Source of the DNA: Myxococcota bacterium
GTDB taxonomy: Bacteria; Myxococcota_A; UBA9160; UBA4427
Length of the DNA stretch: 64,000 nucleotides
Direction: 5' to 3'
Assembly: GCA_036336835.1 (NCBI GenBank)
Contig: JAYZFK010000082.1
Span: 6,951-70,950 of the forward strand
The position numbers and the translations under genes were made by a program. The notes under the pieces are model-generated. The model saw only the letters and a list, made by a program, of their open reading frames with translations. It did not search any database and was not told where the DNA came from. Shown piece after piece: positions 3,172 through 63,349 of this stretch. Each line of letters starts with the position of its first letter. Positions within the stretch are counted from its first letter, which is position 1.

Positions 3172-4804
<1,633 letters not shown>

Positions 4805-6451: not shown

Positions 6452-6457
6452 AGCCCT

Positions 6458-8136: not shown

Positions 8137-8138
8137 GC

Positions 8139-9134: not shown

Positions 9135-9148
9135 GCGGTCTCCTAGAG

Positions 9149-11343: not shown

Positions 11344-11497
11344 CGCCGTCCTCCCGGAGCCCACCGCGTGGCGCGGGGGCGCCTCCCTGGCATCGGCTGC
11401 CGGCGCGCCGAAGTGAAGCCAGGATTGCCGGTGGCACCTCCGGCTCGGCCAGAGACCCACTTCCGCTGCGAACGGAAACGGCGGTTTCGCAGCGGGC

Positions 11498-14668: not shown

Positions 14669-14774
14669 GGCGGTTCTCCCGTTTGTCATCGGGGAATGTC
14701 GGGCGCAGCCGGCCTCGCCCGATCCGGCCGCTCCCGGGGCACGCCTCCAGGGCTGGCGGAGCGGTCGGCCCATT

Positions 14775-17700: not shown

Positions 17701-18203
17701 GGATCCTCCGGAGAGGCGCGCTGGGGCTCGTCGCCGATACGCTCGACGGTCCGCCGATCGCACTCAGCGGTGATCACCTTGACCATGCCCTCGAGCCCGA
17801 GGGCACGGCCGTCCTCGGGAGTGAAGATCCGCGCCACGCCATAGGCCTGCAAGGCCTCGATCTCGTCGGGCAGGATCGTGCCCCCGCCGCCTCCGTAGAC
17901 GCGTACGTGGCCGGCGCCGCGCTCGCGCAGCCGGTCGATCATGTAGCGGAAGAACTCGTTGTGCCCGCCCTGGTAGGACGACACCGCGATCGCGTGCGCG
18001 TCCTCCTGGATCGCGGCCTCGACGATCTCGTCGACCGAGCGGTCGTGGCCCAGATGGATCACCTCCGCACCCTGGCTCTGCAGGATGCGCCGGATGATGT
18101 TGATCGCTGCGTCGTGCCCATCGAATAGCGACGCGGCGGTCACCACGCGCACGCGCCAGGACCGCGGATCTCGCGCCCCAGAATCGGAGGCCGCGCCGCT
18201 CAC
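14775..18203 (-). CDS. icmF: Fused isobutyryl-CoA mutase (B12 domain, MeaI-like GTPase, mutase barrel)
   Basis: N-terminal B12 domain ([16 protein letters not shown]), an internal G-domain ([18 protein letters not shown]) and a C-terminal mutase domain. GTG at 18203 overlaps the merR-like stop as GTGA. The upstream 147 aa of the track ORF are rejected. Confidence 0.9.
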
Positions 18204-18616
18204 GAGCTTCGCCCCCGCGGCGCCCCAGCGAGCGATTCGCTGCGGCTCGCCACATGCTCTCGGTACTTGCTCATCTCGTCGCGCAGCTGCTGGAGCTCCG
18301 CGATGCGGGCATCGAGCTCGCCGAGCCGGTCGTCGAGCTGCCTGGCGAGCCGCTCCAGCATCGCCCGGGTCGAGCCGCCGATTGCATAGATCGCGTTGAG
18401 CTCTTTGATCTCCGCCAGCGAAAGCCCGAGCGCCTTCAGGCGGCCGATGAAGCGCAGGCGCTCGAGCTCGTCGGCCCCATAGACGCGTCGGCCGCCAGCG
18501 CGCCGACGCACGCCCGGCAGCAGGCCCAGCTCTTCGTAGTAGCGCACCGTACGCGCGGACAGTCCGGTCTGACGGCAGACCGCACCAATCTCCTCGGTGA
18601 TGTCTTCCCGGGCCAC
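18200..18616 (-). CDS. MerR-family transcriptional regulator
   Basis: The HTH IGAVCRQTGLSARTVRYYEELGLL is followed by a coiled-coil dimerisation helix. GTG start is preceded by GGGAGGA. There is no C-terminal B12- or metal-binding domain. Confidence 0.85.
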   Translation of the reverse strand: MAREDITEEIGAVCRQTGLSARTVRYYEELGLLPGVRRRAGGRRVYGADELERLRFIGRLKALGLSLAEIKELNAIYAIGGSTRAMLERLARQLDDRLGELDARIAELQQLRDEMSKYREHVASRSESLAGAPRGRSS

Positions 18617-18655
18617 ACGTTCCTCCCTGGATCGACCGACTCATCGGCTAGTTCG

Positions 18656-20906: not shown

Positions 20907-21626
20907 TCACTCGCTCGCCGCGCGTCCCTCGATCTGCCGATAGGCCGAGGCCCACATCAGGTAGTTGATCGCGATGGCCGGGATGACACCCACGACGAGC
21001 GCCAGTACACCTGCGAGCACGACCACCGAGGTGACCAGGACCAGGACCGGGAACACCCACGCTTTCACCCTCCCCGTCGCAGACCAGGCCGCCTGCAGCG
21101 CCTCGATCCCGCCCATGTCCTGATCGACGATGTAGAAGAAGCACAGCGTGAGCCGCGGAGCCACGAAGAACGCAAATCCGAGGCTCAGCAGGGAGCCGAT
21201 CCCAGTCAGCAGCGCGCTCCCGATGTGGGTACCAACCATCTGGACCGACTGGAAAGCCAGGTTGATCAGCACGATCGCGACGATGGCGATGAGCACCGAT
21301 GCGAGCACTTCCGAGTAGCGCGAGAACCCGGCGAACAGATCGCCAAACTCGGCCTCCCCGTCGTACATGCGCAGCACGAACAGGTAGGAACCCCAGACCA
21401 GATGGGGCAGCAGCAGCGGAATGCCGAGCAGCGTGAACGCCGCGAGACTCGTGGCCGTCAGCCCGACGAACCCCACGCCGAGCCAGAGCGGAAAATTCTC
21501 CCAGGTCGCTGTCCAGGCTTCCGACAGACAGCGACCGACGTCGATATCGGCGCTTTCGGCACTCCGACCATACGCGGAGTCGGGGTGAAGGTCGGCAGAC
21601 GGCGGCACATACGGGTTCTCGTTCAT
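20907..21626 (-). CDS. Polytopic membrane protein of unknown function
   Basis: Starts MNENPYVPPSADL and has about 5-6 hydrophobic helices. It sits between rnc and era. The track ORF's first 59 aa overlap rnc and are rejected. Confidence 0.7.
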   Translation of the reverse strand: MNENPYVPPSADLHPDSAYGRSAESADIDVGRCLSEAWTATWENFPLWLGVGFVGLTATSLAAFTLLGIPLLLPHLVWGSYLFVLRMYDGEAEFGDLFAGFSRYSEVLASVLIAIVAIVLINLAFQSVQMVGTHIGSALLTGIGSLLSLGFAFFVAPRLTLCFFYIVDQDMGGIEALQAAWSATGRVKAWVFPVLVLVTSVVVLAGVLALVVGVIPAIAINYLMWASAYRQIEGRAASE

Positions 21627-21688
21627 CGGTCCCCGATAGGCGACGGGCTCGGACGCAACGTCCGGGGCATAGCGTATCACGCAACCGC

Positions 21689-22423
21689 CTAGCGAACCTC
21701 TTCGTCCTCTGGCAGCGTGGCGAGCATCGTTTCGGCGGCAAGGCGCTCGGCGGCCCGCTTCGAGCGACCGCTTCCACGGGCGCTCTGACCCGAAGCCAGC
21801 CAAACCTCGACGATGAACCGCTCGTCATCGCCCTCGATGTCCGAGTCGCTGACCAGCGAGTAGCGAGGGAGATCTCCCCAGCATGCGACGGCCAGCTCCT
21901 GCAGCTCGGTCTTCGGGTCGCGGCCGGTGCGCTCCGCGCCCGGTTGGAAGGAGTCCGGGAACGCCCTCTCGACGAGCTCGCCGATGACGTCGAGGCCCCC
22001 GTCGAGGAACATCGCGCCGATCACCGCCTCCATCGCATTGGCCAGGATCCGCTGCTTGACTGCACCTCCCGATCGAAGCTCGGTGCGCCCGAGCTCGATC
22101 ACCTCCGAAAGCGCCAGTCGTGTGGCGAGCCGGGCCAGAGCGTGCGTGTCCACCAGGCCGTGGAGCCCACGCGTCAGGTCGCCCTCCGCCCACTCGTCGT
22201 GGGCCGCGAACAGGCGATGTGCCACCGCCAGACCGACCACCGAGTCGCCGAGGAACTCGAGCCGCTCATTGCTCTCGAGAACGGCGTCCTCGTTGGCGCG
22301 CGAGGCGTGGCGAAGCGCCGTTGCGAGCAGCGAGCGGTCGCGAAAGTGATAGCCGAGACGCTCCTCGAAGCCGGCGAGATCTCGGGCGGGCGGCTCGCTC
22401 AAGAGGCGTTCCGCGCGAGCCAT
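21689..22423 (-). CDS. rnc: Ribonuclease III
   Basis: NERLEFLGDSVV signature and a C-terminal dsRBD. Confidence 0.93.
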   Translation of the reverse strand: MARAERLLSEPPARDLAGFEERLGYHFRDRSLLATALRHASRANEDAVLESNERLEFLGDSVVGLAVAHRLFAAHDEWAEGDLTRGLHGLVDTHALARLATRLALSEVIELGRTELRSGGAVKQRILANAMEAVIGAMFLDGGLDVIGELVERAFPDSFQPGAERTGRDPKTELQELAVACWGDLPRYSLVSDSDIEGDDERFIVEVWLASGQSARGSGRSKRAAERLAAETMLATLPEDEEVR

Positions 22424-37864: not shown

Positions 37865-38374
37865 GTGCACTTCCGACGATTGCGATCGAGTTACATGCTA
37901 GGGATCGGCGCCGCGGCTGTCGGACTTCTCACAGCCACGGTCCAGGCAACCCCGACCGACCCCTCTCTGGCGCTGCGCGCCGCGAGCGCGACGAGCGGCC
38001 GGGTCGTGATGCTTCGCATCGAGGGGAGCTTCCATGCGAGTGATCTCACGCAGGTGGCGTTCCCGCTCCAGGTTCTGGTCAGGGATCTCGACTCCGGTGC
38101 CGACTACCTGCGATACGACATCGCGCGCGGCGGCTTCAGCGGAACGGACTGGATGCTCGCCGACGGGCTGCAGGCGCGCGACGTGACCGGACTGCTGGCG
38201 GGCGGGACACCCGAGCCGACGGCGCAGCTGCTCGAGCTCAGCGAGGACCGCATCGACCTCACGCTCCCGAGCGAGTTCGCCGGGAGGCGGGTCGAGGTTC
38301 AGCTCTTCGTAGTGCACGGGGGCACAGCCGTGCTCTCGAACCCCCTTTCGCTCAGGATTGGAGAGGCGTCGTGA
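37865..38374 (+). CDS. Exported hypothetical protein (about 140-aa beta-rich mature domain)
   Basis: GTG start after AGGAG. Signal peptide is MHFRRLRSSYMLGIGAAAVGLLTATVQA. The C-terminal segment RRVEVQLFVVHGGTAVLSNPLSLRI looks Ig/TIG-like. I recognise no family. Confidence 0.7.
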   Translation: MHFRRLRSSYMLGIGAAAVGLLTATVQATPTDPSLALRAASATSGRVVMLRIEGSFHASDLTQVAFPLQVLVRDLDSGADYLRYDIARGGFSGTDWMLADGLQARDVTGLLAGGTPEPTAQLLELSEDRIDLTLPSEFAGRRVEVQLFVVHGGTAVLSNPLSLRIGEAS

Positions 38375-39891
38375 TGCGGCGCGCTGGTCTCATCCTCGCG
38401 CTGCTTGGATCGACGCTCCTCGGGAGTGTCTGCGAGAGTGGACCGGACTCCGTGCTGGCAGGAGACCCGGCTGACCCCGTGACCGGACTGGTCTACGAGA
38501 TCGTTCCCGGTGCGCCGCGCATCGCTGCCGGACCAGACGGCTCGTTCGGAACTGACGACGATCAGGTCGGTCCCGAGATCGGGGACATCGACCTGGTGAT
38601 TCGCTCGCTTGCAAGCTTCGTAGGCGCAATCCCGCCGACTGCACCACGACGCGCGGGCGGCGCGATCCCGACCGTCGTGGCGGGGCGTCTGGGTGTCGGC
38701 ACGGGCATCCCGTTCAGTCTCGCGCTGACCGACGGCGTCCTGCCGTTGGGCCCGCCGGTTGTACTCGACGACCTCTCGGACCTCCCGATGCTGGTGCTCG
38801 CGTATGCGGATTTCGACGGCGATGGCTACATCGGAATCACGCAGCTCGATGGCGATGCGCTCGACAGCGATGTCGAGGAGGCCGAGCTCGTTCCCATCGC
38901 GCGTCGCTATGCGTTCCTCCCACAGACTACGACCTCGGGTGAACTCTTCGCTCAGGCAGGTGGGCCACCGGGCGCCGAGCTCGACGTGGTGCTCTCGGTC
39001 GTCACCTGGGCGGGCCGACGGCGGCCCGGTTTCTTCTCGGGCGCCGTGCCGGACGGCCCAGCGCTCATGACGCGCCTCCCGTTCCATCCACTGACGAGCG
39101 TCCTCGACACCCTGGGCGACGATCCCGGTCCGGCGAGCGCTGGCTCACTGGTCGGCGCCGAGGTCCGGCCCGCCTTCGAGCCGGACCCCGGCGACCCGGC
39201 GATCGGCGAGGCGTTCACCATGCTGCTGGACGGCTCCCAGCCCTCTACCGATCGGGCAAGAATCCGGTCGAGCGAGTTCGTCCGCTTCGGACTTGCCGTC
39301 ACGCCCAAGGCCGACTTCTTCGACGACATGCCGTCGCGCCCGTTGCGGCCCGGGTTCGACGACGCAGGAGCACGCGTGCTCTACGAGATCCTGCACCAGC
39401 TCAGCCTGCCAGACGATGGATCCTCGAGCGAGGCCACCGTGCGCGTGGTTCCGCTCGACGCATTTGGCAATATCGCGTCGCTCCCGATCGGCGAAACAGT
39501 CGAGCTGGAGGCATCGGGCTCACTCGAGATCCGCTGGCCGGACCGCGACGGGGATGTGCAACGCGAATCGCTCTCGATCCGCGACGGGCGGGGAGCGGAT
39601 ATCGTGATCGACGACTCCGGCGGCGCCCTGGACGACGCCGACTGGGGCCGCTTGACCGTCACGTCGCCCAGCGGGATCTACTTCCTCGACGTCAGCATTC
39701 CCGACCCGGATGTGGATGATTCCGGCCTCGTCGACTTCGGCGATCTCATGCTGATCGGGGCTCTGGACGGCGCGCGCGTCGGCGAGGCCGAGTATGACAG
39801 TCGGTTCGACCTGGACGGCAACGGGCGGCTCCAGGACGACGACCTGGACGAGGCCGCAAGTCATCTGGGCGCGGCGGTCACGATTCCCTGA
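38371..39891 (+). CDS. Exported hypothetical protein with an Ig-like module and a C-terminal dockerin-like Ca-binding repeat pair
   Basis: GTGA overlap with the upstream gene. Signal peptide is MMRRAGLILALLGSTLLGSVC. Has a DFDGDGYIG loop, a Big-like segment VRVVPLDAFGNIASLPIGETVELE, and a C-terminus DVDDSGLVDFGDL...DLDGNGRLQDDDLDEA. Confidence 0.75.
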   Translation: MMRRAGLILALLGSTLLGSVCESGPDSVLAGDPADPVTGLVYEIVPGAPRIAAGPDGSFGTDDDQVGPEIGDIDLVIRSLASFVGAIPPTAPRRAGGAIPTVVAGRLGVGTGIPFSLALTDGVLPLGPPVVLDDLSDLPMLVLAYADFDGDGYIGITQLDGDALDSDVEEAELVPIARRYAFLPQTTTSGELFAQAGGPPGAELDVVLSVVTWAGRRRPGFFSGAVPDGPALMTRLPFHPLTSVLDTLGDDPGPASAGSLVGAEVRPAFEPDPGDPAIGEAFTMLLDGSQPSTDRARIRSSEFVRFGLAVTPKADFFDDMPSRPLRPGFDDAGARVLYEILHQLSLPDDGSSSEATVRVVPLDAFGNIASLPIGETVELEASGSLEIRWPDRDGDVQRESLSIRDGRGADIVIDDSGGALDDADWGRLTVTSPSGIYFLDVSIPDPDVDDSGLVDFGDLMLIGALDGARVGEAEYDSRFDLDGNGRLQDDDLDEAASHLGAAVTIP

Positions 39892-39935: not shown

Positions 39936-40580
39936 ATGGACACTTCTCAGCCAGACTCAGTCCAGCAGATGGACGCATTCGACCAGGAGTCGGACGCGAT
40001 CCGCACGCTGCTCCTCGTGATCGTCGCGGTCCTCGCGCGACGCAGCAGCATCTCGCCAACCGAGCTGGACGCGGTCTTCTCGGTCGCCGGCGATCTGGTC
40101 CGTGCGCGCTGGGGACCGCACTCCGTGGCAGAGCGGGAAGTCAACGGCTGTCGCGAGGACTTGACCGGGTCTGCGCCCCACGCACAGAAGGCCCCAGCAC
40201 CGGAGGATGGCTCCCACTGGGAGCGCGAGCGGCCGATCGAGGTTCTTCATCAAGTGGCGGACGCGATTCGCACGCTGCTCATCGTGGCCATCGCCGCGCT
40301 CAGGGGCGCGGGCCGGATCTCGCAACGCGAGTTGGACGCGGTCTTCTCTGCGGGGGGGGATCTGGTCCGTCAGCGCTGGGGGCCGCACTCGGCGGCGGGC
40401 ATCGTGATCAACGGCTGCCAGGACGACCTGACCGAGGCGCTCTCGGCGTTGGGCATGCACGGCGCGGGCAGGACTCGGACCGGGCTCTCCCCGGCGAGCA
40501 CCGAGCAACGCTGCGAGGCGGGGAACGCGCCGCCTGCCAGTCGATCCGCCCCCCTCGTTGCGCCGGCTCCCGGGAGCTGA
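39936..40580 (+). CDS. Hypothetical protein composed of two about 60-aa repeats
   Basis: ATG after AGGAG. High third-position GC on the plus frame, while the antisense ORF is Arg-rich junk. No signal peptide. I recognise no family. Confidence 0.65.
   Translation: MDTSQPDSVQQMDAFDQESDAIRTLLLVIVAVLARRSSISPTELDAVFSVAGDLVRARWGPHSVAEREVNGCREDLTGSAPHAQKAPAPEDGSHWERERPIEVLHQVADAIRTLLIVAIAALRGAGRISQRELDAVFSAGGDLVRQRWGPHSAAGIVINGCQDDLTEALSALGMHGAGRTRTGLSPASTEQRCEAGNAPPASRSAPLVAPAPGS
39993..40439 (+). repeat. In-frame internal tandem duplication (two copies, 267-nt period)
   Basis: Copy 1 is 39993-40172 and copy 2 is 40260-40439. DAIRTLLLVIVAVLARRSSISPTELDAVFSVAGDLVRARWGPHS...NGCREDLT aligns with DAIRTLLIVAIAALRGAGRISQRELDAVFSAGGDLVRQRWGPHS...NGCQDDLT. 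Confidence 0.85.
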
Positions 40581-53531: not shown

Positions 53532-54302
53532 ATGGGCGGGGCTGACCTGCGCTTCAGCGGCCGCTCGGCGCTCGTCACCGGCGGGGCGGGCGCAGGGCTC
53601 GGCTTCTCGATCGCCCGGCGCCTGGCGTCCGAGGGCGCACGGGTCGCGATCGTCGATCGCCACGAGCGGCGAACAACCGAGGCAGTCGACCGCCTGGGCT
53701 CGGAATTCGGCGGTGCGGCAGCAGCGGGGTTCGTACTCGATGTGGCCGATCGCGAGGTGGTCGCCCAGCGGTGGCCGGAGATTGCGCGCTTCCTCGGTAC
53801 GATCGACGTGTTGGTCAACAACGCCGCGACCAATGCTCTCGGGCCCCCGTCCGAGCTGACCGACTCGGACTGGGACCGGGTCCTTGCGCTGAACCTGACA
53901 GCCTGCTTCACACTGATTCGGGCGGCGCTTCCCGGAATGCAGGAGCGCGGCCGGGGCGCGATCGTCAACGTCAGCTCGATCGCCGCGTTCGGCCACGGGG
54001 CCGGCAACAACGCTCCCTACGCCGCAAGCAAGGCTGGGCTCAATGCGCTGACACGCAGCGTGGCCGTTGCTGCAGGGCCCTACGGGGTGCGCTGCAACGC
54101 GGTCGCACCGGGCCTGATGGAGGGACCGTTCCTCGCTGGCCGTCGCGACCAGTTCCAGGACCAGCTCGAGCGCACCCCGCTGCGGCGCTTCGCCGAGCCC
54201 GGAGACGTGGCAGCCGTGATCGCGTTCCTCGCCTCGGACGACGCCCGCCACGTTACCGGCGAGGTCGTGAACGTGAGCGGGGGGGTCTCCCTGCGGCCTT
54301 GA
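53532..54302 (+). CDS. SDR-family oxidoreductase (FabG-like)
   Basis: TGGAGAGLG, NNAA, and YAASKAGL motifs. Confidence 0.9.
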   Translation: MGGADLRFSGRSALVTGGAGAGLGFSIARRLASEGARVAIVDRHERRTTEAVDRLGSEFGGAAAAGFVLDVADREVVAQRWPEIARFLGTIDVLVNNAATNALGPPSELTDSDWDRVLALNLTACFTLIRAALPGMQERGRGAIVNVSSIAAFGHGAGNNAPYAASKAGLNALTRSVAVAAGPYGVRCNAVAPGLMEGPFLAGRRDQFQDQLERTPLRRFAEPGDVAAVIAFLASDDARHVTGEVVNVSGGVSLRP

Positions 54303-54345
54303 GCGCTCCCGGCGCGAGCCGCTCCGCCCAACCGATCACCTACCT

Positions 54346-54386
54346 GCCGAGCCGGGCCGCGCTGAGCGGCTCGGCTGGTGTGTCGG
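54346..54386 (+). terminator. Possible intrinsic terminator after the SDR gene
   Basis: 9-bp stem GCCGAGCCG / CGGCTCGGC with a 12-nt loop, followed by TGGTGTGTCGG. The U-tract is weak. Confidence 0.35.
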
Positions 54387-54548
54387 AACTCGCTTTGCGG
54401 GTCCTCGGGCTCCAGCGACCCCGCCGACTGGCCGATAGGTCCAATCGGGCGGAGCGCCGGGCCTCGTCCCGGCGAAACCGGGCCGCACGGCTGCAATGCC
54501 ATTGACCCTGATCCGTTGGGCCTGGACGGCCCATCACTCGAGGAAACC

Positions 54549-54986
54549 ATGAACATCAATCCCAAGTCATCGAAGCTAGTTCTCGTCTGCGCGCTCGGCA
54601 TGCTGGCGGCCTTCTTCGTGCCGTGGCTCGATTACTCCGACGCCGGAATGTCCGGCTACAACCTTGGCCTGCTCGGCCCCTTTGGATACTACGTCTGGAT
54701 CGTTCCGGCTCTCGCCGCGGCGACCGTCCTGCTCAGCGTCCTCGGCGTCAGCAATCGAGGAATCGGCGCCGTCTGCGGAATCGTCCCGCTCGGGTCGATC
54801 GTTTACTTCATGTTCAGGCTGGTCAATGAGGGACAAGACCGCACGACTGAGGGGCTTCTGGGGCTCGCCGGTCGCGTGCTCGAGCTTGGAGCATGGCTCA
54901 CGATCATCTTCAGCGTCGTGATCATCATCGCGGCCGTCGTTCGCCGGGCAGGATCCACGCCCCAGACTACACAGTCCGGGGCTTGA
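54549..54986 (+). CDS. Small polytopic membrane protein of unknown function
   Basis: ATG after GAGGAAA. MNINPKSSKLVLVCALGMLAAFFVPW, with four hydrophobic helices. Confidence 0.7.
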   Translation: MNINPKSSKLVLVCALGMLAAFFVPWLDYSDAGMSGYNLGLLGPFGYYVWIVPALAAATVLLSVLGVSNRGIGAVCGIVPLGSIVYFMFRLVNEGQDRTTEGLLGLAGRVLELGAWLTIIFSVVIIIAAVVRRAGSTPQTTQSGA

Positions 54987-55152
54987 AGCGAGTCGGATCG
55001 GACGATGCACGCTGCGTCGATCCTGGGTCCGCTCGGACGGCCCGGACTCCGATTTCGAGGCCTGGCCCCGCGGCAGGCTCGCCCCGGCTCAGCTCGCTAA
55101 CGCCAGATGGACGAGCAGGCGTCGACCTAGGCCGCCTGCGGGATCGTCGTCC

Positions 55153-55182
55153 TTGACGGTGTAGCGAGCAGGCTACTATACA
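55153..55182 (+). promoter_or_regulatory. Sigma-70-like promoter upstream of the 55277 operon
   Basis: TTGACG (55153-55158), an 18-nt spacer, then TATACA (55177-55182). It lies about 95 nt upstream of the ATG. Confidence 0.45.
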
Positions 55183-55276
55183 GTCTGGACGGGGTAGGCC
55201 ACGCGAATGCTCTGACTGGCGTCGGTCCCAGACTGGCTGCAGCCGCTCGTGGATTCGCTCAGGCTGGAGATCGGAG

Positions 55277-55918
55277 ATGAATCGATCGCTCCGGCTAGCA
55301 TATGTCCTGCTCGCGATCGCCTCGTTCACGATGCTTGCGGAGCGCTCGCAGGCATATGATGTCGAGGCCGATAGCACCACCAACACGGTCTTCGTCCTGT
55401 TGTGGAACGGCAATCCGGCGGCATCGTTCGAGTCCATCACGATCAGCGAGGCTCTGCCGGCCATCGTCACGCAGGCCACGGCGAGCATCATCCCGGCCTC
55501 GGTTCCCGCCAACGGGAGTGACCTCGCGGCCATCGACTTCGACGTCCCGGCGGGAGCAGCACTCGGCTCCAGTGGAGACCTCGTCATCACGGTGTCCGGG
55601 AGCGCGTCCGGCCAGCCGATCGACGTCGTCCTGACGGTGCCGCTGCAGGTCGTCGCGACGGCCCCGGCGGCACAGGGTGTCGTCGGTGTGGGGATCCCGG
55701 CACCCGACCCCGGCGGTGTCGACAGCGACGCCGACGGCGTCAGCGACGCGCTCGAGATCGCGTTTGGAAGCGATCCCTTCGATCCGGCTTCGATGCCCGG
55801 CAAGACGGTGTCGGTCCCGTCGCTGGAAGCCATCGGGCTCACATGCCTCGCCGCGCTGCTCATGCTGGGCAGTGTCTGGCTGATGCGGCGACGCCCGCCG
55901 CAGCCGAGCGTCCCATGA
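55277..55918 (+). CDS. Exported protein with a TSP3-like Ca motif and an IPTL/PEP-CTERM-like C-terminal sorting tail
   Basis: Signal peptide is MNRSLRLAYVLLAIASFTMLAERSQA. Has DSDADGVSDALE. The C-terminus is VPSLEAIGLTCLAALLMLGSVWLMRRRPP: a motif, a TM helix, then an Arg cluster. Confidence 0.75.
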   Translation: MNRSLRLAYVLLAIASFTMLAERSQAYDVEADSTTNTVFVLLWNGNPAASFESITISEALPAIVTQATASIIPASVPANGSDLAAIDFDVPAGAALGSSGDLVITVSGSASGQPIDVVLTVPLQVVATAPAAQGVVGVGIPAPDPGGVDSDADGVSDALEIAFGSDPFDPASMPGKTVSVPSLEAIGLTCLAALLMLGSVWLMRRRPPQPSVP

Positions 55919-58278
55919 GCGCCGTGCGAAGGCACTGGCCGTTGTGGACCGTCGTTGCGCTGCTGGCGGCGACGAACGCACACGCCGGAGATCCCACGCG
56001 CATTCAGCTCGTGGCCGACATCCCGGCTCTGGCGCTCAGCATCGTCGATGCGTCGGGCGCGATCTCCGGAGAGGTCGACGGGATCGCGACCGATGCGCTG
56101 GCGGGCCCGAATCCGGGCGAGGTCATCGGGGCGGCGCAGCTGGGACTGTCGATTCCCACGACTTCAGGGGTAGTGACCTGGGGCCACCGCGACGGCACCG
56201 AAACCTTCGTCGCCGGCCTGCCCGCGATGGACGTCGATGGCAGCTATGCGGATCCCTTCCCGGGAGCGATCCTCGAGAAGCTCTACAACCCGCCGATCGA
56301 GTTCGACGCCACCGGTTCGAACAACGCGGCACAACGCAGCGTCTCGTTGGCGGTGCGCATCGAGCAGCCCTCGGGAGGCACGATCGTCGTCTGGAAGGAC
56401 ATCGTCCTGGTCAAACCCCCGGTGGTGCTCGTGCACGGCATCAGCCAGAACCCGTCGGCATGGGCCGGGTTCGAGAACGAATTCAGGAACAACCGCGGCT
56501 TCAAGACCTTCGCCGTCGACCACTCCGGGGGCTCGTATACCAGCGGCGCGCCAACCTGGGGGGGCAACGGGGACATCCACGACTCGTATCAATTCGTGCG
56601 CGGGAACATGCCCGGCTCGGTCGGAGTGGCCGAGGCGCTCGCCCGCTTCCGCACCGGAGACGCGACCGCGCATGCGGGCCTGAAGATCGTGGTGCAGAAG
56701 GCGGACGTCGTCGGGAGCAGCTACGGAGGCCTGCTCTCGCGCTGGTACGTCGAGCAGGCCGTGGACTATGGCGACGACGTCCGCAAGCTGATCACCATGG
56801 GAACACCGCACCGCGGCGTGCCCGCGACCAACATGAACGCGCAGGCAGCGAACGACGATGTCATCGCCAACGCCTCCTCCCAGCTCTTCTCGCCGTTCGA
56901 CACCATGGCGGGCACCTTGCAGCTGATCGATGACCTGGGGTTCCTCCGCTGGAAGCAGGACCCGATGGACCCCATGAACGACGACGTCGTCCCCTCGCTC
57001 CAGGTGATGACCTTCGGCTCGGAGGTCCTGGCCCAGCTCAACGACTCCGCGCCCTTCCGCGACGACGTGGCCTACGGCTCGATCGTGGGCATCGAGGACC
57101 AGCTCGACTTCGTGGTCTTCGTGATCAACATCCACTACGACCTCGATCCCGTCGTCAGCCTGCTCTCGGAGCAGAAATCCTATTTCCCGATGATGCCGAT
57201 CCTGGATGCTGGCCCGAACGACAGCGATGCGGTGGTCCCCATCTGGAGCGCGAAGCTTCCAGCTCGTTCCACGGAAGTGCTCTTCGACCATCTGAGCTTC
57301 CACGACAGCGCCACGGTCCAGAATACGGTTTCGATCTGGCTTCAGGACTCCACACTTCCTCTGGGGGCGGCACACCGGACGGCGTTCCAGGCCGAGGTGA
57401 TCGATCAGTACACCTCGCGCGAAAACGCCTACGTCGGCAGCACGCTCGTGGGCACGGAGAGTGTCGGCGGCGGCCTGGTCGAGGACGCCATCGTGCAGGT
57501 GAAGTTCTCGGGCCCGGCGCTCACCGAGGTCGGGGGCCTGTCCGCACTCGGTTCCGGCGGCGGCATCGTGACGGCCACGATGACGGGCATGGTGCGCGTG
57601 GACGTCGCGGGAGTCCCGCAGCCGGAGACAGTCACACTCGTCAACGATGGGACGTTTGTGGATACGCCCCTGCATGCCGTCACCCAGATCCTGGACCCGG
57701 GCACGACGCCAGCGGGAGAGTTCTTCACTTTCTCCATCGACGCGAGCTTCTCGCGCGGCCAGGCGAGCATCGTGGGGCCAGACGGGAGCGTTGCGGGCAC
57801 CGGGATTTGGAGCGTCGGCTATGAGATTTCGGCGGCGCCCGACTACACGCAAGCGCCCTGGACCGACATCGATTTCCTGTCGTTCGTGCTGCCCACGATA
57901 TTCGTTCCGGGCGAGTCCCCCCCGTTCTCGGTCGGCCTCGCACCCGGTAGTGCCTTCACCCTCGAGGGCACTGTAAACGCGACCGCGGCCGGCGCCGCAA
58001 CGCAGTCGGTCACCAGCGAGATCTGGGAGGCGAACTTCTTCTTCGACACGCTCATGGAAAGCCGCAGCTTCAACGTCTCGATGCCGGCGGAGACGATTTC
58101 CGGCGCGCTCATGCCGTATTCGGAGCCGGGGTTCTTCCTGTTCAAGAACGGCAGCGGTCAAATCGAAGGCAGCGCTGGCTCGAGCGGCGAGACGACCGGC
58201 GACTTCTACCAGTTCCTGATCCAGCCCGGTGCCTCCAATCCGAGCTCGGACAGCGTCACCGTCACGGTTGCGCCATGA
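55915..58278 (+). CDS. Exported alpha/beta-hydrolase (lipase/PGAP1-like core) with a large uncharacterised C-terminal region
   Basis: ATGA overlap with the upstream gene. Signal peptide is MSAVRRHWPLWTVVALLAATNAHA. Has VVLVHG (oxyanion), VVGSSYGG (GxSxG, Ser codon at 56719-56721), ITMGTPHRG, SDAVVP and FDHLSFH. Confidence 0.8.
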   Translation: MSAVRRHWPLWTVVALLAATNAHAGDPTRIQLVADIPALALSIVDASGAISGEVDGIATDALAGPNPGEVIGAAQLGLSIPTTSGVVTWGHRDGTETFVAGLPAMDVDGSYADPFPGAILEKLYNPPIEFDATGSNNAAQRSVSLAVRIEQPSGGTIVVWKDIVLVKPPVVLVHGISQNPSAWAGFENEFRNNRGFKTFAVDHSGGSYTSGAPTWGGNGDIHDSYQFVRGNMPGSVGVAEALARFRTGDATAHAGLKIVVQKADVVGSSYGGLLSRWYVEQAVDYGDDVRKLITMGTPHRGVPATNMNAQAANDDVIANASSQLFSPFDTMAGTLQLIDDLGFLRWKQDPMDPMNDDVVPSLQVMTFGSEVLAQLNDSAPFRDDVAYGSIVGIEDQLDFVVFVINIHYDLDPVVSLLSEQKSYFPMMPILDAGPNDSDAVVPIWSAKLPARSTEVLFDHLSFHDSATVQNTVSIWLQDSTLPLGAAHRTAFQAEVIDQYTSRENAYVGSTLVGTESVGGGLVEDAIVQVKFSGPALTEVGGLSALGSGGGIVTATMTGMVRVDVAGVPQPETVTLVNDGTFVDTPLHAVTQILDPGTTPAGEFFTFSIDASFSRGQASIVGPDGSVAGTGIWSVGYEISAAPDYTQAPWTDIDFLSFVLPTIFVPGESPPFSVGLAPGSAFTLEGTVNATAAGAATQSVTSEIWEANFFFDTLMESRSFNVSMPAETISGALMPYSEPGFFLFKNGSGQIEGSAGSSGETTGDFYQFLIQPGASNPSSDSVTVTVAP

Positions 58279-60641
58279 GCGAGCCGCGCACGGTCGTTGC
58301 GGCTGCGTGCGGAGTGGGGCTCGCGCTGCTGCTCGCATCCGGGGCGGCTGCGGACGCTGTGGCGCCCGTCTTGGATCGGGAGCTTCCCGATCTCGATCGC
58401 GGCCTGCCGGCAGTGCTCGACCTCGACTCCGGCGGGCTGGCGCTGGCGCAGCAGCCCGCGGCCTTCGCGAACGTGGAAGAGTACAAGGCGGCGCTCGCTC
58501 GGCTCGGCGACCTGGCCTATGACGACGTGCAGGGAGGGCTGCTCTTCCTCGCCGCGGGCTTCGCGCTGCCGCTCGGCACCGCAAAGCCGGGCGAAGCCGA
58601 GCTTCTCGAACTGTCCGAGCGACTCGAGCCGCGCGTGTTCCTGCGCGGTTCCGAGCTCGCACCGGGCTCGTGGTTCGCCGTGCGCACGCGCGCCGGCAAG
58701 CTCTCGCTGGCGCTCGTCGTGACACGAACCCGGGAGGCGATTCGCCTGCGCTGGTCTGCGCCGCGCAGCGCGCAAGCGCCCGTTCGAACTGCCGGGGTCG
58801 ATGCGATCGCGGCGGTCCCGACCGCACGGCTGTCCAGTGCGTTGCTCCCGCCGCTCGGCGAGGCGCCCGAGTCGGTGCTGCGCCTCGCCACCGGCGGGCT
58901 CGTTGCCGGCCCGGCGCTGCCGGAGCCATTCCTGCCGCGGGAGCTGGGTGCGCTGGTGGACGCGGTCGGACGCAAGGGGGATCTCGCCTACTTCCGCTTG
59001 CGCTCCGGCATGCTGATCGTTGCCGCCGGCAAGCTGGCACAGCTGGGGACCGGCCCTGTGGCGGCGCTGGCAGGCCGAGATCTGCGGCCCCGGCTGCGCG
59101 AGCGTTCGACGGTTGCATCGAACGCGCTGATACCGGGGAGCGTGCTGCTGGTGGAGACGACCCGCGGACAGCACGCGCTCGTGCGTGTCGATGCCGTCGA
59201 GCCGGAGGGGCTTCGCGTGACCTGGCTGCTGCAGTCCGATGGGAGCGCCGTCTTCCGCGACCTGGCCGCCTTCGACGCGACCTTCGAGATTGCGGACCCG
59301 AAAGTGCTCGACCGGCTGTTGCTTGCCGCCGCCGCGCGCGGAGACTCCGCCGCGCTTCGGCGCCTGCTCGCGCTCGGCGCGGACGCGAATGCCACCCGGG
59401 GCCGCGATGCACGGCCGGCACTGGTTCTCGCGGTGATCGACGGTGACGTCAGTGCGGTTGCCGTGTTGCTCGAGGCCGGTGCCGACCCTGCGGGCGCCGG
59501 CAGCCTCGGCTGGAACGCGCTGCAGGTGGCTGCGCAGCTCGGGCGGGTCGAGCTGGTCGAGGCGCTGCTCGGCGCCGGCGCGGACCCACAGACGCGCACG
59601 CCAGAGGGCAAGGACGCTCTGCAGCTCGCGCTCGACTCGCCGCGGCAGAGCCTCGCGCTCATCCGGTTGCTACGCCGCCACAGCGAGACCCCCGACTCGC
59701 TGGCTCTGGCGGCGCGCGTCGGCGATCTGGCCGCCCTCGGCGCACTGCTCGCAGACGGTGCCGCGGTGGATCTGCCGCGCGAGGACGGGCAGACGGCCCT
59801 CCAGGTCGCGGCGGCGGCGGGCCAGCCGGCGGCGGTTCGCATCCTGCTGGCGGCGGGTGCCGATCCAGGTATCGAGTCCGAGGCTGGCGACTCGGCGTTG
59901 CTGGCAGCAGTGGCCGCGGGCCAGGTCGAGACGGCAGCGCTGCTGATCGAGCACGGCGGGGTTTCCGACGCGCAGATGAACGCTGCGCTCTACCGAGCCA
60001 ACGAGAACGGCTCACCGGAGCTGGTCGGGGGCCTGCTGCGCGGCGGCGCGGACGCCGGGCGCGACCAGGGCAAGGGTCTGAGCCCGCTCGACCATGTGCT
60101 TCAGTACGGCAGCGAGTCCGTCGTCGCGGTCTACCTCGAGAACGGATACGCACTCAGCGCGGCGGCAGCCGCGCGGCTCGGGCTGGTAGAGCAACTCACC
60201 ACCTTGCTGGAGCAAGGAGTCGCGCCGAACGAAGCCAGCGCCGATGGCCGCGTGCCGCTGCAGCACGCGATCGAGAACGATCAGATCGATGCTCTTCGGG
60301 TGCTGCTCGATCACGGCGTCGCTGCGGACGCGCCGCTTCCGACCTGGGATCGGCGCTCACCGCTCCACGAGGCCGCCGCACGTGCCGATGTCGACGTGGT
60401 CGCCCTGCTGCTCGACCGCGGGGCCGATGCGAACCAGCTCGATCGGGTCGGTCGCAGCCCGCTCTACGACGCCGTCGCTCACGGACGCGAGGACTCGGTG
60501 CGGGTGCTGCTCGAGCACGGCGCCGACCCCAACCTGGCGCCAGCGGGCGAGGCGCTGATCGACATGACGTCGCGCGAATCGATGCGGACGTTGCTGGCGA
60601 GCCACGGCGCACACTCCTCGGAGGCATCACCGCCCGATTGA
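58275..60641 (+). CDS. Exported ankyrin-repeat protein with a duplicated N-terminal domain
   Basis: ATGA overlap with the upstream gene. Signal peptide is VVAAACGVGLALLLASGAAADA. Roughly ten ANK repeats run from about 59307 (motifs such as LLxxGADxN and TALQVAA). Confidence 0.85.
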   Translation: MSEPRTVVAAACGVGLALLLASGAAADAVAPVLDRELPDLDRGLPAVLDLDSGGLALAQQPAAFANVEEYKAALARLGDLAYDDVQGGLLFLAAGFALPLGTAKPGEAELLELSERLEPRVFLRGSELAPGSWFAVRTRAGKLSLALVVTRTREAIRLRWSAPRSAQAPVRTAGVDAIAAVPTARLSSALLPPLGEAPESVLRLATGGLVAGPALPEPFLPRELGALVDAVGRKGDLAYFRLRSGMLIVAAGKLAQLGTGPVAALAGRDLRPRLRERSTVASNALIPGSVLLVETTRGQHALVRVDAVEPEGLRVTWLLQSDGSAVFRDLAAFDATFEIADPKVLDRLLLAAAARGDSAALRRLLALGADANATRGRDARPALVLAVIDGDVSAVAVLLEAGADPAGAGSLGWNALQVAAQLGRVELVEALLGAGADPQTRTPEGKDALQLALDSPRQSLALIRLLRRHSETPDSLALAARVGDLAALGALLADGAAVDLPREDGQTALQVAAAAGQPAAVRILLAAGADPGIESEAGDSALLAAVAAGQVETAALLIEHGGVSDAQMNAALYRANENGSPELVGGLLRGGADAGRDQGKGLSPLDHVLQYGSESVVAVYLENGYALSAAAAARLGLVEQLTTLLEQGVAPNEASADGRVPLQHAIENDQIDALRVLLDHGVAADAPLPTWDRRSPLHEAAARADVDVVALLLDRGADANQLDRVGRSPLYDAVAHGREDSVRVLLEHGADPNLAPAGEALIDMTSRESMRTLLASHGAHSSEASPPD

Positions 60642-60653
60642 GCGAGCTGGGCT

Positions 60654-60690
60654 GGCGCGGGCACCCAGCGGTCTCCCGCGCCGATTCTTC
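60654..60690 (+). terminator. Possible intrinsic terminator after the ankyrin gene
   Basis: 8-bp stem GGCGCGGG / CCCGCGCC with a 13-nt loop, followed by GATTCTTC. Confidence 0.4.
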
Positions 60691-60899
60691 CAGCGAGTCA
60701 GCGGACTCGTCGATCGATCTGGCAGGGGCTCAGGGCGCGGTTCTGGCGGAGCGGCAGAAGGCAGTGGTACGCGTCAGCGTGAGCACGTTTACCATGCTAG
60801 GCGGCGGCCAGCGTAGTCCCAGTTCGGCGCGCGGAGCCCTAGCACGGCGACCGTTCGCGGGATTTGCATCCGCCGCACTGACATTCTGGGAAGAGAAGA

Positions 60900-60976
60900 T
60901 GGTAGCGGTGGCTGGACTTGAACCAGCGACCTACGGCTTATGAAGCCGTCGCTCTAACCGACTGAGCTACACCGCC
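60900..60976 (-). tRNA. tRNA with CAU anticodon (elongator Met or lysidine-dependent Ile2), CCA encoded
   Basis: The minus strand reads GGCGGTG TA GCTC AGTCGGTTA GAGC G ACGGC TTCATAA GCCGT AGGTC GCTGG TTCAAGT CCAGC CACCGCT A CCA, a full cloverleaf. It has no initiator features (no 3-GC anticodon stem, no C1-A72). Confidence 0.9.
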
Positions 60977-61050
60977 CTGATCCTCGCGGGCGCGCAGTCT
61001 AGCGCAGCACCTCGCGTCACGATCCGGGCTGTTTGCTGCCCGGGCTTGCT

Positions 61051-61686
61051 TCACGAGTCGCTCGGGCGTTGGGCTTGCTTGAGGGCCTTGTTGGCGTCGT
61101 CCAGATCACGGCGCAGCTCGCGCGACTCGCGCTCGAGGGCATCGACGCGGCGGCGCAGCTTGTCGACTGACGGGCGCGCACGTTCAGAGCCGGGGCCGGC
61201 CGCAACCGCAGTGTCGTCGAAGTCGCTGACGGCGAAACGGGAGACCTTGCCGACCAGCTCGTCGAGATCGGGGATCACGTCTCCGATGCTGCCCGAGTGA
61301 ACGAATATCTCACGCAGGGGCTCGCCCTGCTCGCCGTCTGCGGTGGAGGCGGCCTGCATATCGAGGCTGGCTCCCTGACCGAACCGGGTGAACGAACCGA
61401 ACAGCACGAAGCCAGCGCCGACCTCACGGCCGGTGGCGAGGGCTTCCGCAAGGATCGTCGTGGCCTTGGCGGGGTCGCCGATGCGGATCACCTCGAATAC
61501 GCCAGCCTGCTCGAGACGCGACACCAGCATGTCGGCGAGGCCGGCGCGCAGATACGCGGGATCCTCCGCGCTGTGTACCACCACCGGTACGAGCGCGATC
61601 TTGGGCTTGGTCTCCTGCTGAGCCGCGCCCGCCGACGCGACCAGCAGCAGCACGGTGAGGGCGATGCGTCCGGTGCAGCGCGACAA
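61051..61686 (-). CDS. Exported hypothetical protein with a C-terminal coiled coil
   Basis: TTG start at 61686, 5 nt after AAGGAGA. Signal peptide is SRCTGRIALTVLLLVASAGAAQ. The N-domain KIALVPVVVHSAEDPAYLRAGLADMLVSRLEQ is vaguely LpoB/CsgG-like. The tail is a charged heptad. Confidence 0.65.
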   Translation of the reverse strand: MSRCTGRIALTVLLLVASAGAAQQETKPKIALVPVVVHSAEDPAYLRAGLADMLVSRLEQAGVFEVIRIGDPAKATTILAEALATGREVGAGFVLFGSFTRFGQGASLDMQAASTADGEQGEPLREIFVHSGSIGDVIPDLDELVGKVSRFAVSDFDDTAVAAGPGSERARPSVDKLRRRVDALERESRELRRDLDDANKALKQAQRPSDS

Positions 61687-61744
61687 CCGATCTCCTTTGC
61701 GGACGACCGCGGGCGGCCGAGCATCCGTCAATCCCTCTGGGGCG

Positions 61745-63349
61745 TCAAGCGGATGGATCGTCGGTTGCCGCCGGGAGCCGAACCTCGACCGTGGAGCCCT
61801 GCCCGACCGCACTGCGTGCACTGACCGTGCCGCCGTGCTGGCGGGCGATCTGTTGCGCCACGATCAGGCTGGGCCGCGCCACGGCCTCTTCGAGCCTGAG
61901 CTTCGGCTCGAAGACCTGCTGGAGCTCATCGGGTTGCATGCCCGGACCGGCGTCGACGATCTCGATCCAGGCACCGTCGCCGGACTCGTCGGGATCGGGA
62001 GCGATGCGGAGCAGGACGCGCTCACCGGCAGGTGTCGCGTCGATGGCGTTCAAGGTCAGTCCGACCAGCATCTGCTCGAGCAGTGCCCGCTGGCCGATCA
62101 CCTTGGGTGTCGCGGGATCGGCTTCGACAGCTACCTCGATCGAGGCAGCCGCGGCCGTGCCTTCGACCAGCGACGCGATCTCCCGCGCGATCTCGAGGAG
62201 GTCGATCGTGCCGACGCTTCCAGCCTCGGGCTGGGTCTCCCCCAGCGCAAGCAGTCCGGCCAGCTGCTTTCGCACTCCTTCGAGCTCGAAGCCTGCATCG
62301 CCGGCCACGCTCTCGAGCCGCGCCAGGGGCTCCTCGAGCGCGCGCGCAACGCCGAGCGACAGCCGTCCCAGGATCCCCAGGCGATCGGCACGCTGGAGCT
62401 GCTCGTGCGAGCTGCGCAGTGCGACCGCGGTTCGGGCTTTCTCGAGCGCGATGACGGCCTGGGTCGACAGGCCATCGAGCAGCGTTCGGTCGTCGGCGCC
62501 GAACCGCCGCCCGCCACTTCGATTGTCGATCGCGATGGCACCGATCACGCCGGCTTCGCCAGCGAGCGGGACGATCACCAGCTCCTCGGCCGACACCTCG
62601 GAGATCCACTGGCGGATCGGAGCCTCGAGCCCGCTCATCTGATCGACGCGAAAGGCCTGGGCCACGCCGCCTTCGAGCCGTTCGAAGAAATCGGGTGCTC
62701 CTGCTCTGCTCAGCTCGATGGCTCTCAGCCGCTCCGCCACCTCGTCTCGTGGCACTGCGGCCGCCCAGCGGAGCGCGCTGCGATCGGGAGTGAAGAAGAG
62801 CACCGCGGCAGCGTCGAGACCGAGCTCGCTGTGGGCCGCGTCGATCAGCAGCCGCACTACTCGATCGGGATCGATCTCACGGTGCAGGGTTCGCGAGAGC
62901 CAGTTCAGGAACGTCAGCTCGTCGACCAACGCACCGCGCTCCCGGTCGAGCGCATAGCGTTCGATCGCGCGGCGTAGGGTGAGCGCCATCTGGTCCGGGT
63001 CCCAGGGCTTGGCGACGTAGCGGTAGATGCGACCATCGTTGATCGCCGCCCCCAGGGTCTCGGCGTCACCGTAGGCGGTCACCAGGATCCGCACGGCCTG
63101 GTCGTCGAGCTCGCGCACCCGACTCAGGAATTCGACGCCCGTCATACCCGGCATTTTCTGGTCGGACAGCACGACCGCGACCGGATTGTCGTTGAGCAGA
63201 CGCATTCCCTCCTCGGCGCTCTGCGCGGTCAGCACCGAAAAGTCGCGCCGGAAGGTCAGCTCGAAGACCCTCAGATTCGCGGCCTCGTCATCGACGTAGA
63301 GGATCGGGAACTCGCGCGAGTCGTGGGCGCTGATGGGCCTGGGCTTCAC
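61745..63349 (-). CDS. Receiver-GAF-histidine-kinase-like protein (H-box and G2 box degenerate)
   Basis: GTG at 63349 overlaps the upstream kinase stop as GTGA. REC domain has ILYVDDE...VVLSDQKMPGMTG...KPW. A GAF region follows, then a DHp-like GVARALEEPL. The HATPase has an N-box and DAGPG but no GxGLG. Confidence 0.85.
   Translation of the reverse strand: MKPRPISAHDSREFPILYVDDEAANLRVFELTFRRDFSVLTAQSAEEGMRLLNDNPVAVVLSDQKMPGMTGVEFLSRVRELDDQAVRILVTAYGDAETLGAAINDGRIYRYVAKPWDPDQMALTLRRAIERYALDRERGALVDELTFLNWLSRTLHREIDPDRVVRLLIDAAHSELGLDAAAVLFFTPDRSALRWAAAVPRDEVAERLRAIELSRAGAPDFFERLEGGVAQAFRVDQMSGLEAPIRQWISEVSAEELVIVPLAGEAGVIGAIAIDNRSGGRRFGADDRTLLDGLSTQAVIALEKARTAVALRSSHEQLQRADRLGILGRLSLGVARALEEPLARLESVAGDAGFELEGVRKQLAGLLALGETQPEAGSVGTIDLLEIAREIASLVEGTAAAASIEVAVEADPATPKVIGQRALLEQMLVGLTLNAIDATPAGERVLLRIAPDPDESGDGAWIEIVDAGPGMQPDELQQVFEPKLRLEEAVARPSLIVAQQIARQHGGTVSARSAVGQGSTVEVRLPAATDDPSA

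Follow-up and report, generated by a model that had tools for sequence, protein, structure and literature searches.

In the Lif operons, the gene for a Sec-exported lipase is followed by the gene for an exported, all-alpha partner that is specific to this client (PMC7046727, PMC3352829, PMC13381987). In the Tle6-Tli systems, including Tle/Tli of Enterobacter cloacae and Slp of Serratia, the Tli protein both neutralises and activates the lipase (PMC11470151, PMC10294624), which itself reportedly resembles plant PLA1 and fungal lipases (PMC11470151). In the katB-ankB operon of Pseudomonas aeruginosa, found also in Myxococcus xanthus, AnkB is needed for full periplasmic activity of KatB, according to the statement in PMC12754779 that cites Howell et al. 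2000. Here we describe a three-gene operon from a Myxococcota bacterium (contig JAYZFK010000082.1) that lies in a stretch of 64,000 nucleotides, called the window below in the sense of the whole stretch of DNA that was analysed. The operon encodes a small protein with a sorting-type tail (A), a lipase-type hydrolase (B) and an ankyrin-repeat protein (C), each apparently exported through Sec:

55277-55918, forward strand: gene A, 213 amino acids (aa), an open reading frame (ORF) call
55915-58278, forward strand: gene B, 787 aa, a predicted exported lipase-type serine hydrolase
58275-60641, forward strand: gene C, 788 aa, a predicted exported ankyrin protein

None of these three proteins has been studied before. 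The reading that we favor, with about even confidence, is that the operon provides an envelope-tethered lipase-type exoenzyme together with its own partner, all three products being exported by Sec. Two pairings, observed independently of each other, carry this reading, namely, that of A with exoenzymes that share a short N-terminal tag and that of B with C. In its presumed working, the trio resembles a lipase-plus-private-partner operon to which a device for enzyme tethering has been added. It is a member of no named system: the preliminary description of the window could not place it in any, and the comparison with Lif, Tle6-Tli, the curated sorting domains and the PADLOC models bears this out.

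The likeness to the Lif systems of Pseudomonas, Burkholderia and Acinetobacter (LipA-LipH/LipB/Lif) involves both the enzyme and the gene layout. The profile and fold matches of B are these very lipases (1ys1, 1cvl, 9g8u), and the partner gene lies directly downstream, overlapping by ATGA, with C predicted to be exported or anchored. However, C shows no sequence similarity to Lif, combines its ankyrin solenoid with a further two domains and is two to three times larger. B is only distantly related to the Lif lipases (E ~1e-7, 11-17% identity), from which its three beta-sandwich domains also set it apart; moreover, the Lif systems have no A-type anchor gene. The Tle6-Tli systems are similar in that a lipase is encoded beside an exported ankyrin-repeat protein, Tli, which binds Tle6. 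The preliminary description had mentioned ankyrin-type periplasmic partners of some contact-dependent phospholipase effectors, and the Tle6-Tli literature bears this out (PMC11470151), but the likeness does not extend to the system as such: Tle6 lacks a signal peptide and depends for its delivery on a type VI secretion system (T6SS), whereas B appears to have a signal peptide, neither the window nor the inspected loci were found to contain T6SS genes, and the fold neighbours of B are family I lipases. Likewise, Tli is a lipoprotein with six repeats, whereas C has ~13 repeats, extra domains and no lipobox. The katB-ankB operon also pairs an exported enzyme with an exported ankyrin protein, but the enzyme class differs and there is no homology to the trio beyond the ankyrin repeat. 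As for AnkB, it is small (<200 aa) and is not known to contain further domains.

To assess the conservation of the operon, loci (designated below by L numbers) were collected from the B, C and A sides and then scanned with custom hidden Markov models. In every Myxococcota locus with a contig that reaches far enough, the genes follow each other in the order A-B-C and overlap or abut. This amounts to at least 11 distinct loci, the others being cut by contig ends, and no counter-example was found among the related Myxococcota loci; a metagenome scan with a narrower alignment of the N-terminal domain of C yielded 8 loci, all close. The flanking genes (sulfatase, P450, beta-lactamase, PMT_2, a 145-aa membrane protein and RR-GAF-HK), in contrast, are common only to the trio analysed here and its closest relative, L079, and differ in all other trio loci. 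Because the order is kept while the flanks change, the trio appears to be a conserved unit, in agreement with the self-contained module that the preliminary description had proposed, and for which it had suggested this very check of gene neighbourhoods. The three proteins diverge in step, with identity ranges of 59-75% for B, 54-73% for A and 47-67% for C, and all their domains are evenly conserved. Chance adjacency of the three genes was considered and rejected given that the order is kept in every locus; a mobile element or horizontally moving island was rejected as well, because the flanks are common to the closest relative and mobility genes are missing.

The association of B with C reaches beyond the phylum and is seen there in the absence of A. 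Five loci have an ankyrin ORF of 757-819 aa immediately behind B, namely, a Verrucomicrobia-like contig (L006/7), L008, a metagenome-assembled genome (MAG) of Gammaproteobacteria (L016) and two loci of Lentisphaerae (L017 and L018). The N-terminal domain that is specific to C was detected in these partners from other phyla in 4 of the 5 cases (L006/7, L008, L016 and L018) and not in L017. The size of C remains constant across the B-C loci while that of B spans 787 to >3000 aa. The genes upstream of B in L006 (921 aa) and L008 (1174 aa) are not homologues of A, the latter sharing with it TSP3 repeats only. Among the loci collected, C was found only adjoining B. The persistence of the hydrolase-ankyrin pair across phyla is what the interpretation of the two proteins as an enzyme with a dedicated partner, also put forward in the preliminary description, predicts, and this part of that description gains in strength accordingly.

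The second pairing involves A and became apparent from A-like genes of another kind. In all four that were sampled (L090, L091, L092 and L093), the next gene encodes a glucanase that combines GH16 and F5/8-type-C domains; it is separated from the A-like gene by a gap of 0-4 bp or overlaps with it, and no ankyrin gene follows. These glucanases and B show no significant similarity beyond the signal peptide and a short tag:

55987-56025, forward strand: N-terminal tag of mature B, GDPTRIQLVADIP (residues 25-37), the proposed docking strand for A

The tag, SP-G-x-[PA]-TRIQLV, is present in 4 of the 4 GH16 cargos and in every Myxococcota orthologue of B whose N-terminus is intact (29 of 29), and in all of these proteins it lies straight after the signal peptide (NAHA GDPTRIQLVADIP in B, and LLA GPTRIQLVGNIS, VFA GSPVRIQLVEGIT, VFA GEPTRIQIAETF and VAV GNDTRIQLVGNIS in the cargos). 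It is absent in 18 distant homologues of B, which are also devoid of the small A gene, and a six-frame scan of ~1.2 Mb of fetched loci found it nowhere else. In the AlphaFold2 (AF2) model of B, the tag falls within a low-confidence extension ahead of the first domain. None of the papers searched mentions the TRIQLV tag or DUF7379, and the combination of PEP-CTERM with GH16 returned nothing relevant. The comparative sequence data thus show A as an apparently portable partner of tagged exoenzymes, with B bearing the matching tag, and this combination points to enzyme tethering rather than to a toxin system. The view of A as a sorting-tail protein in the preliminary description captured the layout of its tail but overlooked this partnership. 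In L093, the A-like and GH16 genes are followed by a gene of the VasI family (PF11319; 8045-8659, forward strand).

Two devices offer functional analogies for such an arrangement, the cohesin-dockerin tethering of enzymes and the donor-strand complementation of pilus subunits. The likeness would consist in a non-catalytic anchor that holds different enzymes via a short, portable, conserved module on the enzyme, in the alternation of polar and hydrophobic residues in the tag, which resembles an added beta strand, and in the Ca-binding repeat that A carries. There is no sequence relation to either device, the tag comprises just ~10-12 residues at the N-terminus, and the anchor is encoded here one-to-one with its cargo. 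The retention of extracellular enzymes at the cell, against the loss of enzymes and products by diffusion, is a central question in the degradation of marine particles and polymers, and, to our knowledge, molecular tethers outside Bacteroidota and cellulosome producers are mostly unknown. If our reading is correct, an anchor encoded by one gene, combined with a tag of ~12 residues that suits enzymes of unrelated families, would answer this question in a simple way and could, possibly, be used as a tool for surface display. The conserved ankyrin partner, in turn, would extend the rule that a lipase needs a private partner, as in Lif and Tli, to new families and phyla, and would give a handle for expressing the uncharacterised lipase family of B.

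The putative anchor consists of a conserved domain, a linker, a repeat and a tail:

55277-55918, forward strand: layout of A, with a signal peptide (residues 1-26), a conserved domain (~27-128), a PDPGG linker, TSP3 (149-170) and a tail formed by VPSL, a transmembrane (TM) helix and RRR (180-206)
55808-55915, forward strand: C-terminal sorting or anchor tail of A, SVPSLEAIGLTCLAALLMLGSVWLMRRRPPQPSVP (motif, TM helix and basic cluster)

The strongly conserved domain of ~100 aa is predicted from the sequence to be beta-rich and is accompanied by one bacterial TSP3 (Ca-binding) repeat. In the alignment of 11 A orthologues, 58 columns are invariant; the family comprises 109 clusters, and a profile search of the PDB with A returned no match. 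The architecture of the tail, [SA][VL]P.L..G-TM-R(R)R, is kept at the extreme C-terminus of all aligned orthologues and has the same three parts, a VPxL motif, a TM helix and an Arg cluster, as the PEP-CTERM/exosortase and IPTL-CTERM signals. The motif itself, however, is VP[AS]L instead of PEP or IPTL, and the score against IPTL-CTERM (TIGR04174) is 14.8 bits, below the cut-off of 20.5, so that of the PEP-CTERM/IPTL-CTERM-style tail announced in the preliminary description, the style stands whereas the assignment to a curated family does not. Matches to TIGR04174 below the cut-off were obtained in 4 of the 11 orthologues (best E = 0.027), none of the 15 members of the A family that were scanned passes the curated IPTL-CTERM or PEP-CTERM cut-offs, and the tails of the gammaproteobacterial A-like proteins likewise remain below the cut-off of the curated sorting domains. 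In L011, a Myxococcota MAG, two further tailed proteins are encoded beside the trio, one with a canonical VPEP-TM-RRK (PEP-CTERM) tail (3637-4728, forward strand) and one with a VPAL-TM-RRR tail that resembles that of A (2402-3496, reverse strand). The co-occurrence of these two proteins suggests that such genomes use sorting of the PEP-CTERM type, and the canonical protein hints that a sorting enzyme exists in the genome.

The hydrolase combines its catalytic domain with three beta-sandwiches:

56032-56412, forward strand: N-terminal beta-sandwich of B (residues 40-166), an all-strand block of the AF2 model with a predicted local distance difference test (pLDDT) score mostly of 86-96
56413-57429, forward strand: alpha/beta-hydrolase domain of B (residues 167-505), with the oxyanion residues H174-G175
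56719-56721, 57226-57228 and 57289-57291, forward strand: triad codons of B, for Ser269, Asp438 and His459, respectively
57430-58275, forward strand: pair of C-terminal beta-sandwiches of B (residues 506-787; AF2 pLDDT ~89-97)

The AF2 model of B (pLDDT 90.3; predicted template modelling score, pTM, 0.84) starts with a free N-terminal extension of low pLDDT that is followed by a beta-sandwich, the hydrolase domain and two further beta-sandwiches. The ~300 C-terminal residues that had been left uncharacterised in the preliminary description are, in this model, two confidently predicted beta-sandwiches (280 residues), the third one being located at residues 40-166. The GxSxG alpha/beta-hydrolase call itself is well supported: B matches Abhydrolase_1 with 41.8 bits (cut-off 25.8) and Palm_thioest with 30.3 bits (cut-off 26.8), whereas PGAP1 (21.6 bits, cut-off 24.3), DUF7379 and DUF676 all remain below their cut-offs; the nucleophile elbow is G267-S-S269-Y-G271 (GSSYG), and H174/G175, S269, D438 and H459 are invariant in 46 B homologues. 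With the catalytic domain, Foldseek retrieved BlEst2 (6wpx, E = 2.5e-10), MAJ1 (7v3k), 9g8u (A. baumannii LipA of the LipA:LipB foldase complex), 2w22, 2zyr (an A. fulgidus lipase) and PGAP1 (8k9q), and with the C-terminal sandwiches, it retrieved the C-terminal barrels of transglutaminases, RbmA and arrestin/VPS26. A single-sequence search of the PDB with B gave no match, whereas the family profile matched the Burkholderia and Pseudomonas family I.2 lipases (1ys1, E = 8e-8) and also 1hqd, 1cvl and Bacillus LipA. The neighbours of B are, therefore, secreted lipases, some of which need a foldase encoded downstream (9g8u as LipA:LipB; 1ys1, 1cvl and 2es4). With an identity of just 11-17% to solved lipases, an assignment of B to subfamily I.1 or I.2 is unjustified, and from the sequence and the model, B is best described as a predicted lipase-type (family I-like) exoenzyme.

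The ~33 orthologues of B, which show 58-80% identity, come from marine Myxococcota MAGs and from metagenomes; relatives at a greater distance (28-40% identity) are 800-1400 aa long. Fusion partners found in relatives of B are Invasin_D3, Big, TIG, beta-propeller, dockerin and Planctomycete-extracellular modules, which points to a surface or extracellular enzyme. In L016 (MAG SZUA-146), the B core ends an ORF of at least 3088 aa (2-9265, forward strand) with domains of the Invasin_D3, Big_5/6, TIG and beta-propeller types, and the C-type ankyrin gene comes next. In L023, a MAG of Pirellulaceae, the gene immediately ahead of the B homologue, and not behind it, is an ankyrin ORF of a generic kind (1523-3325, forward strand) that has no C-specific N-terminal domain.

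The putative partner, C, falls into two regions behind a hydrophobic N-terminal signal or anchor of ~21 residues:

58362-59279, forward strand: N-terminal tandem duplication of C (residues 30-165 and 180-335), a mixed alpha/beta domain of ~140 aa with the signature GDLAY...LG...PG...W
59292-60614, forward strand: ankyrin solenoid of C (residues ~340-780), ~13-14 repeats, Pfam Ank families

The two copies of the N-terminal domain align over 127 aa with 32% identity (E = 6e-11). Neither single-sequence nor profile searches detected a match for this domain in Pfam or the PDB; among 1.8 billion representatives, its family accounts for no more than 49 clusters, most of which are ankyrin proteins of the size of C. 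Profile-profile comparisons of A with B, and of the N-terminus of C with A and with B, revealed no relation. The description of C as an exported ankyrin protein of 788 aa is fully consistent with the searches, where C matches Ank_2 with 183.8 bits (8e-55) and Ank with 3e-34, and with the AF2 model, which contains 14 ankyrin helix pairs (pLDDT ~90-96). At the level of the full-length protein, this model is locally confident (pLDDT 87.4), with an uncertain arrangement of the domains (pTM 0.58). Ankyrin repeats dominate the Foldseek list for full-length C, with DARPins and AnkB/ankyrin-1 (E = 1e-21 to 1e-18), and in Pfam at E <= 0.1, C matches ankyrin families only, with no match to Lipase_chap. 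A lipobox is absent from C and from its orthologues. Among the NCBIfam models, the best matches are Legionella Dot/Icm ankyrin effectors, at the level of the repeats (88 bits against a cut-off of 600 bits). The next-best matches of C are ankyrin proteins of ~1100 aa in Xanthomonas, Lysobacter, Frateuria and Luteimonas, restricted to the ankyrin region.

The layout of the operon is consistent with the joint production of the three proteins. The preliminary description had reported three ORFs chained by ATGA stop/start overlaps, and its coordinates proved exact, with A/B overlapping at 55915-55918 and B/C at 58275-58278; the GC content at third codon positions is 0.83-0.86 in A, B and C, a coding-type value that is the same as in the real genes of the window. 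The sequence contains one recognizable ribosome-binding site:

55266-55269, forward strand: Shine-Dalgarno sequence GGAG, 7 nt ahead of the ATG of A, the only one of the operon, read from the sequence

No Shine-Dalgarno sequence was seen on inspection before B or C. The lack of such sites and the position of the starts of B and C inside the ATGA overlaps fit translational coupling, by which B and C would probably depend on the translation of A. Judged by eye, the N-termini of A, B and C resemble Sec signal peptides, as had been proposed, with putative cleavage contexts ERSQA|YDVE in A, TNAHA|GDPT in B and AADA|VAPV in C. Among orthologues, these segments show ~31% identity compared with 58-72% for the mature domains, a low value of the kind that signal peptides usually show. 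Cysteine is completely absent from mature B and mature C; the sole Cys of A is located in the TM helix of the tail and that of C in the signal peptide.

Taken together, these features suggest a scenario in which the PEP-CTERM/IPTL-CTERM-like tail of A (VPSL, TM helix and RRR) would fix this protein in the envelope, either at the cell surface, following processing of the exosortase type, or on the outer face of the inner membrane, where its conserved beta domain would capture the N-terminal strand exposed on mature B, such that B would stay at the cell instead of diffusing off. C would be the dedicated exported binding partner of B, most likely a periplasmic chaperone and/or inhibitor that would keep the lipase folded and harmless to the cell's own membranes until hand-over. 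C is read as a private partner of B given its exclusive association with B, the apparent translational coupling, the predicted export and the protein-binding solenoid. Precedents for such a role are Lif, which acts in this way on family I.1/I.2 lipases, the ankyrin protein Tli with Tle6, and AnkB with KatB. A bolder version of this scenario, which we put forward only tentatively, is that A and SP-G-x-P-TRIQLV form an undescribed system for exoenzyme display, with C as the founder of a new family of ankyrin lipase chaperones or inhibitors that are each specific to one client. In that case, marine Myxococcota may tag a lipase-type enzyme and Gammaproteobacteria GH16 glucanases, and the C family may serve Sec-exported enzymes in at least four phyla, outside the T6SS.

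Several considerations weigh against the tethered-exoenzyme reading. The A tail scores too low for the curated cut-offs of IPTL-CTERM and PEP-CTERM, and no sorting enzyme for it was found within the window, where the preliminary description had correctly noted that there is no T6SS, type II secretion system or exosortase gene; if the tail is left unprocessed, A would be a periplasmic protein anchored in the inner membrane and not a surface anchor. The proposed binding of A to the tag and of B to C is deduced from gene order and motif distribution, the signal peptides of A, B and C are putative, having been recognized by eye, and the capture of a strand by A is, mechanistically, a guess. The sampled A loci outside the Myxococcota are only four, L090 being a Gammaproteobacteria MAG. 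As for C, it has no similarity to Lif, as judged from the lack of a Lipase_chap match; its length of 788 aa exceeds by far that of any foldase or immunity protein known to us; and it is not universally required, given that the Planctomycetota and Chthonomonadales relatives of B occur without it.

The same set of observations has to be confronted with other explanations. Members of the Myxococcota are often predators, and B and C could be a toxin-immunity pair, that is, a secreted antibacterial or predatory (phospho)lipase with a periplasmic ankyrin immunity protein, with A aiding the delivery. This explanation, which we consider unlikely, accounts well for the position of C immediately downstream of B, coupled to it and apparently exported to the compartment where a lipase does damage, as well as for the layout in other phyla, where the B core ends giant surface proteins and is followed by C, in the manner of polymorphic toxins; furthermore, the genes of ankyrin immunity proteins always accompany those of Tle6 lipases (PMC11470151). 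Yet, the conserved core and variable N-terminal regions of B are the reverse of what is found in polymorphic toxins, and C is a single-copy gene under even purifying selection, without immunity arrays and three times the size of the known Tli. The putative Sec signal peptide of B and the lack of any T6SS, Rhs, PAAR or contact-dependent inhibition context in the loci examined do not fit this explanation, either; neither do the fold neighbours of B, which are family I lipases, whereas Tle6 is reportedly similar to plant PLA1 and fungal lipases, nor the several lineages of B that lack C. The same combination of anchor and tag serves GH16 glucanases, nutritional enzymes that come without an immunity gene.

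That C is seen only next to B, implying a B-specific role, also bears on the possibility that C is a stoichiometric subunit of an extracellular complex, a substrate or surface adaptor that would present the substrate to B or target the complex, or else a secreted ankyrin effector that acts at a eukaryotic host or prey. Ankyrin solenoids are generic scaffolds, a groove of 13-14 repeats together with two further domains exceeds the needs of one enzyme, and with a type I signal peptide and no lipobox, C could leave the periplasm; the effector variant could invoke the Legionella Dot/Icm proteins among the best NCBIfam matches, but these matches are confined to the repeats and fall far short of the cut-off, and the hosts are free-living marine MAG lineages with no host-interaction genes nearby. 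In either form, this explanation seems quite improbable to us. Finally, it is very hard to reconcile with the data that A is the substrate of B, which would then be a deacylase similar to PGAP1 or palmitoyl-protein thioesterase that remodels or releases A or other sorted proteins. The sorting tail of A, the Palm_thioest and PGAP1 scores of B (30.3 vs 26.8 and 21.6 vs 24.3 bits, respectively) and the Foldseek match to PGAP1 8k9q could be cited in its favor; nevertheless, true lipases give stronger profile matches, A-like genes pair equally with GH16 glucanases, which are incapable of deacylation, and the feature common to the two kinds of enzymes is the N-terminal tag, which fits docking better than catalysis. 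Thus, the tethering of a tagged exoenzyme with its own partner remains the interpretation that we prefer.

The elements that were thought to frame the operon are less convincing than the operon itself:

55153-55182, forward strand: promoter-like site, with TTGACG at 55153-55158, a 17-nt spacer and CTATAC at 55176-55181, weakly supported
60652-60684, forward strand: GC-rich hairpin after the stop codon of C, a doubtful terminator

A sigma-70 scan of 54300-61200 detected no promoter, and the site at 55153-55182 misses the thresholds of the scan; both hexamers are nonetheless kept in the closest relative, L079, as TTGACG and, 17 nt downstream, CTAT[AG]C, with a diverged spacer. The hairpin is weak as well: it folds with -30.9 kcal/mol (z = -1.85), 12 of 200 shuffled sequences fold equally well, a T-run is absent, and there is no conservation in L079 or L080. 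Overall, the sigma-70 and terminator scan leaves the framing signals around the trio unsupported. A limit of the module on the downstream side is set by a tRNA-Met (CAT) gene on the strand opposite to C (60900-60976, reverse strand; ARAGORN, and 76 bits in Rfam), ~260 nt downstream of C; this tRNA is the sole Rfam match. Just upstream of the operon, an ORF for a multi-pass membrane protein of 145 aa without a Pfam match (54549-54986, forward strand) has a counterpart at the same position in L079 (6292-6729) and is missing from all other trio loci.

The window as a whole is an ordinary chromosomal stretch of a genome with 68% GC, and its genes include those for DNA polymerase III alpha, guaA, guaB, ftsH, era, rnc and methylmalonyl-CoA mutase. 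The PADLOC defence models gave generic matches at the ankyrin level for C alone and none for A or B. Five further ORFs with coding-type third-position GC have no Pfam match at E <= 1e-3 or 1e-4 (38371-39891 and 39936-40580 on the forward strand; 20907-21803, 10678-11535 and 61051-61821 on the reverse strand). Finally, an ORF of 1289 aa (14775-18644, reverse strand) encodes an IcmF-like fusion of B12-binding, MeaB GTPase and methylmalonyl-CoA-mutase domains, and it adjoins separate genes for the mutase (12524-14773) and for MeaB (11498-12493).

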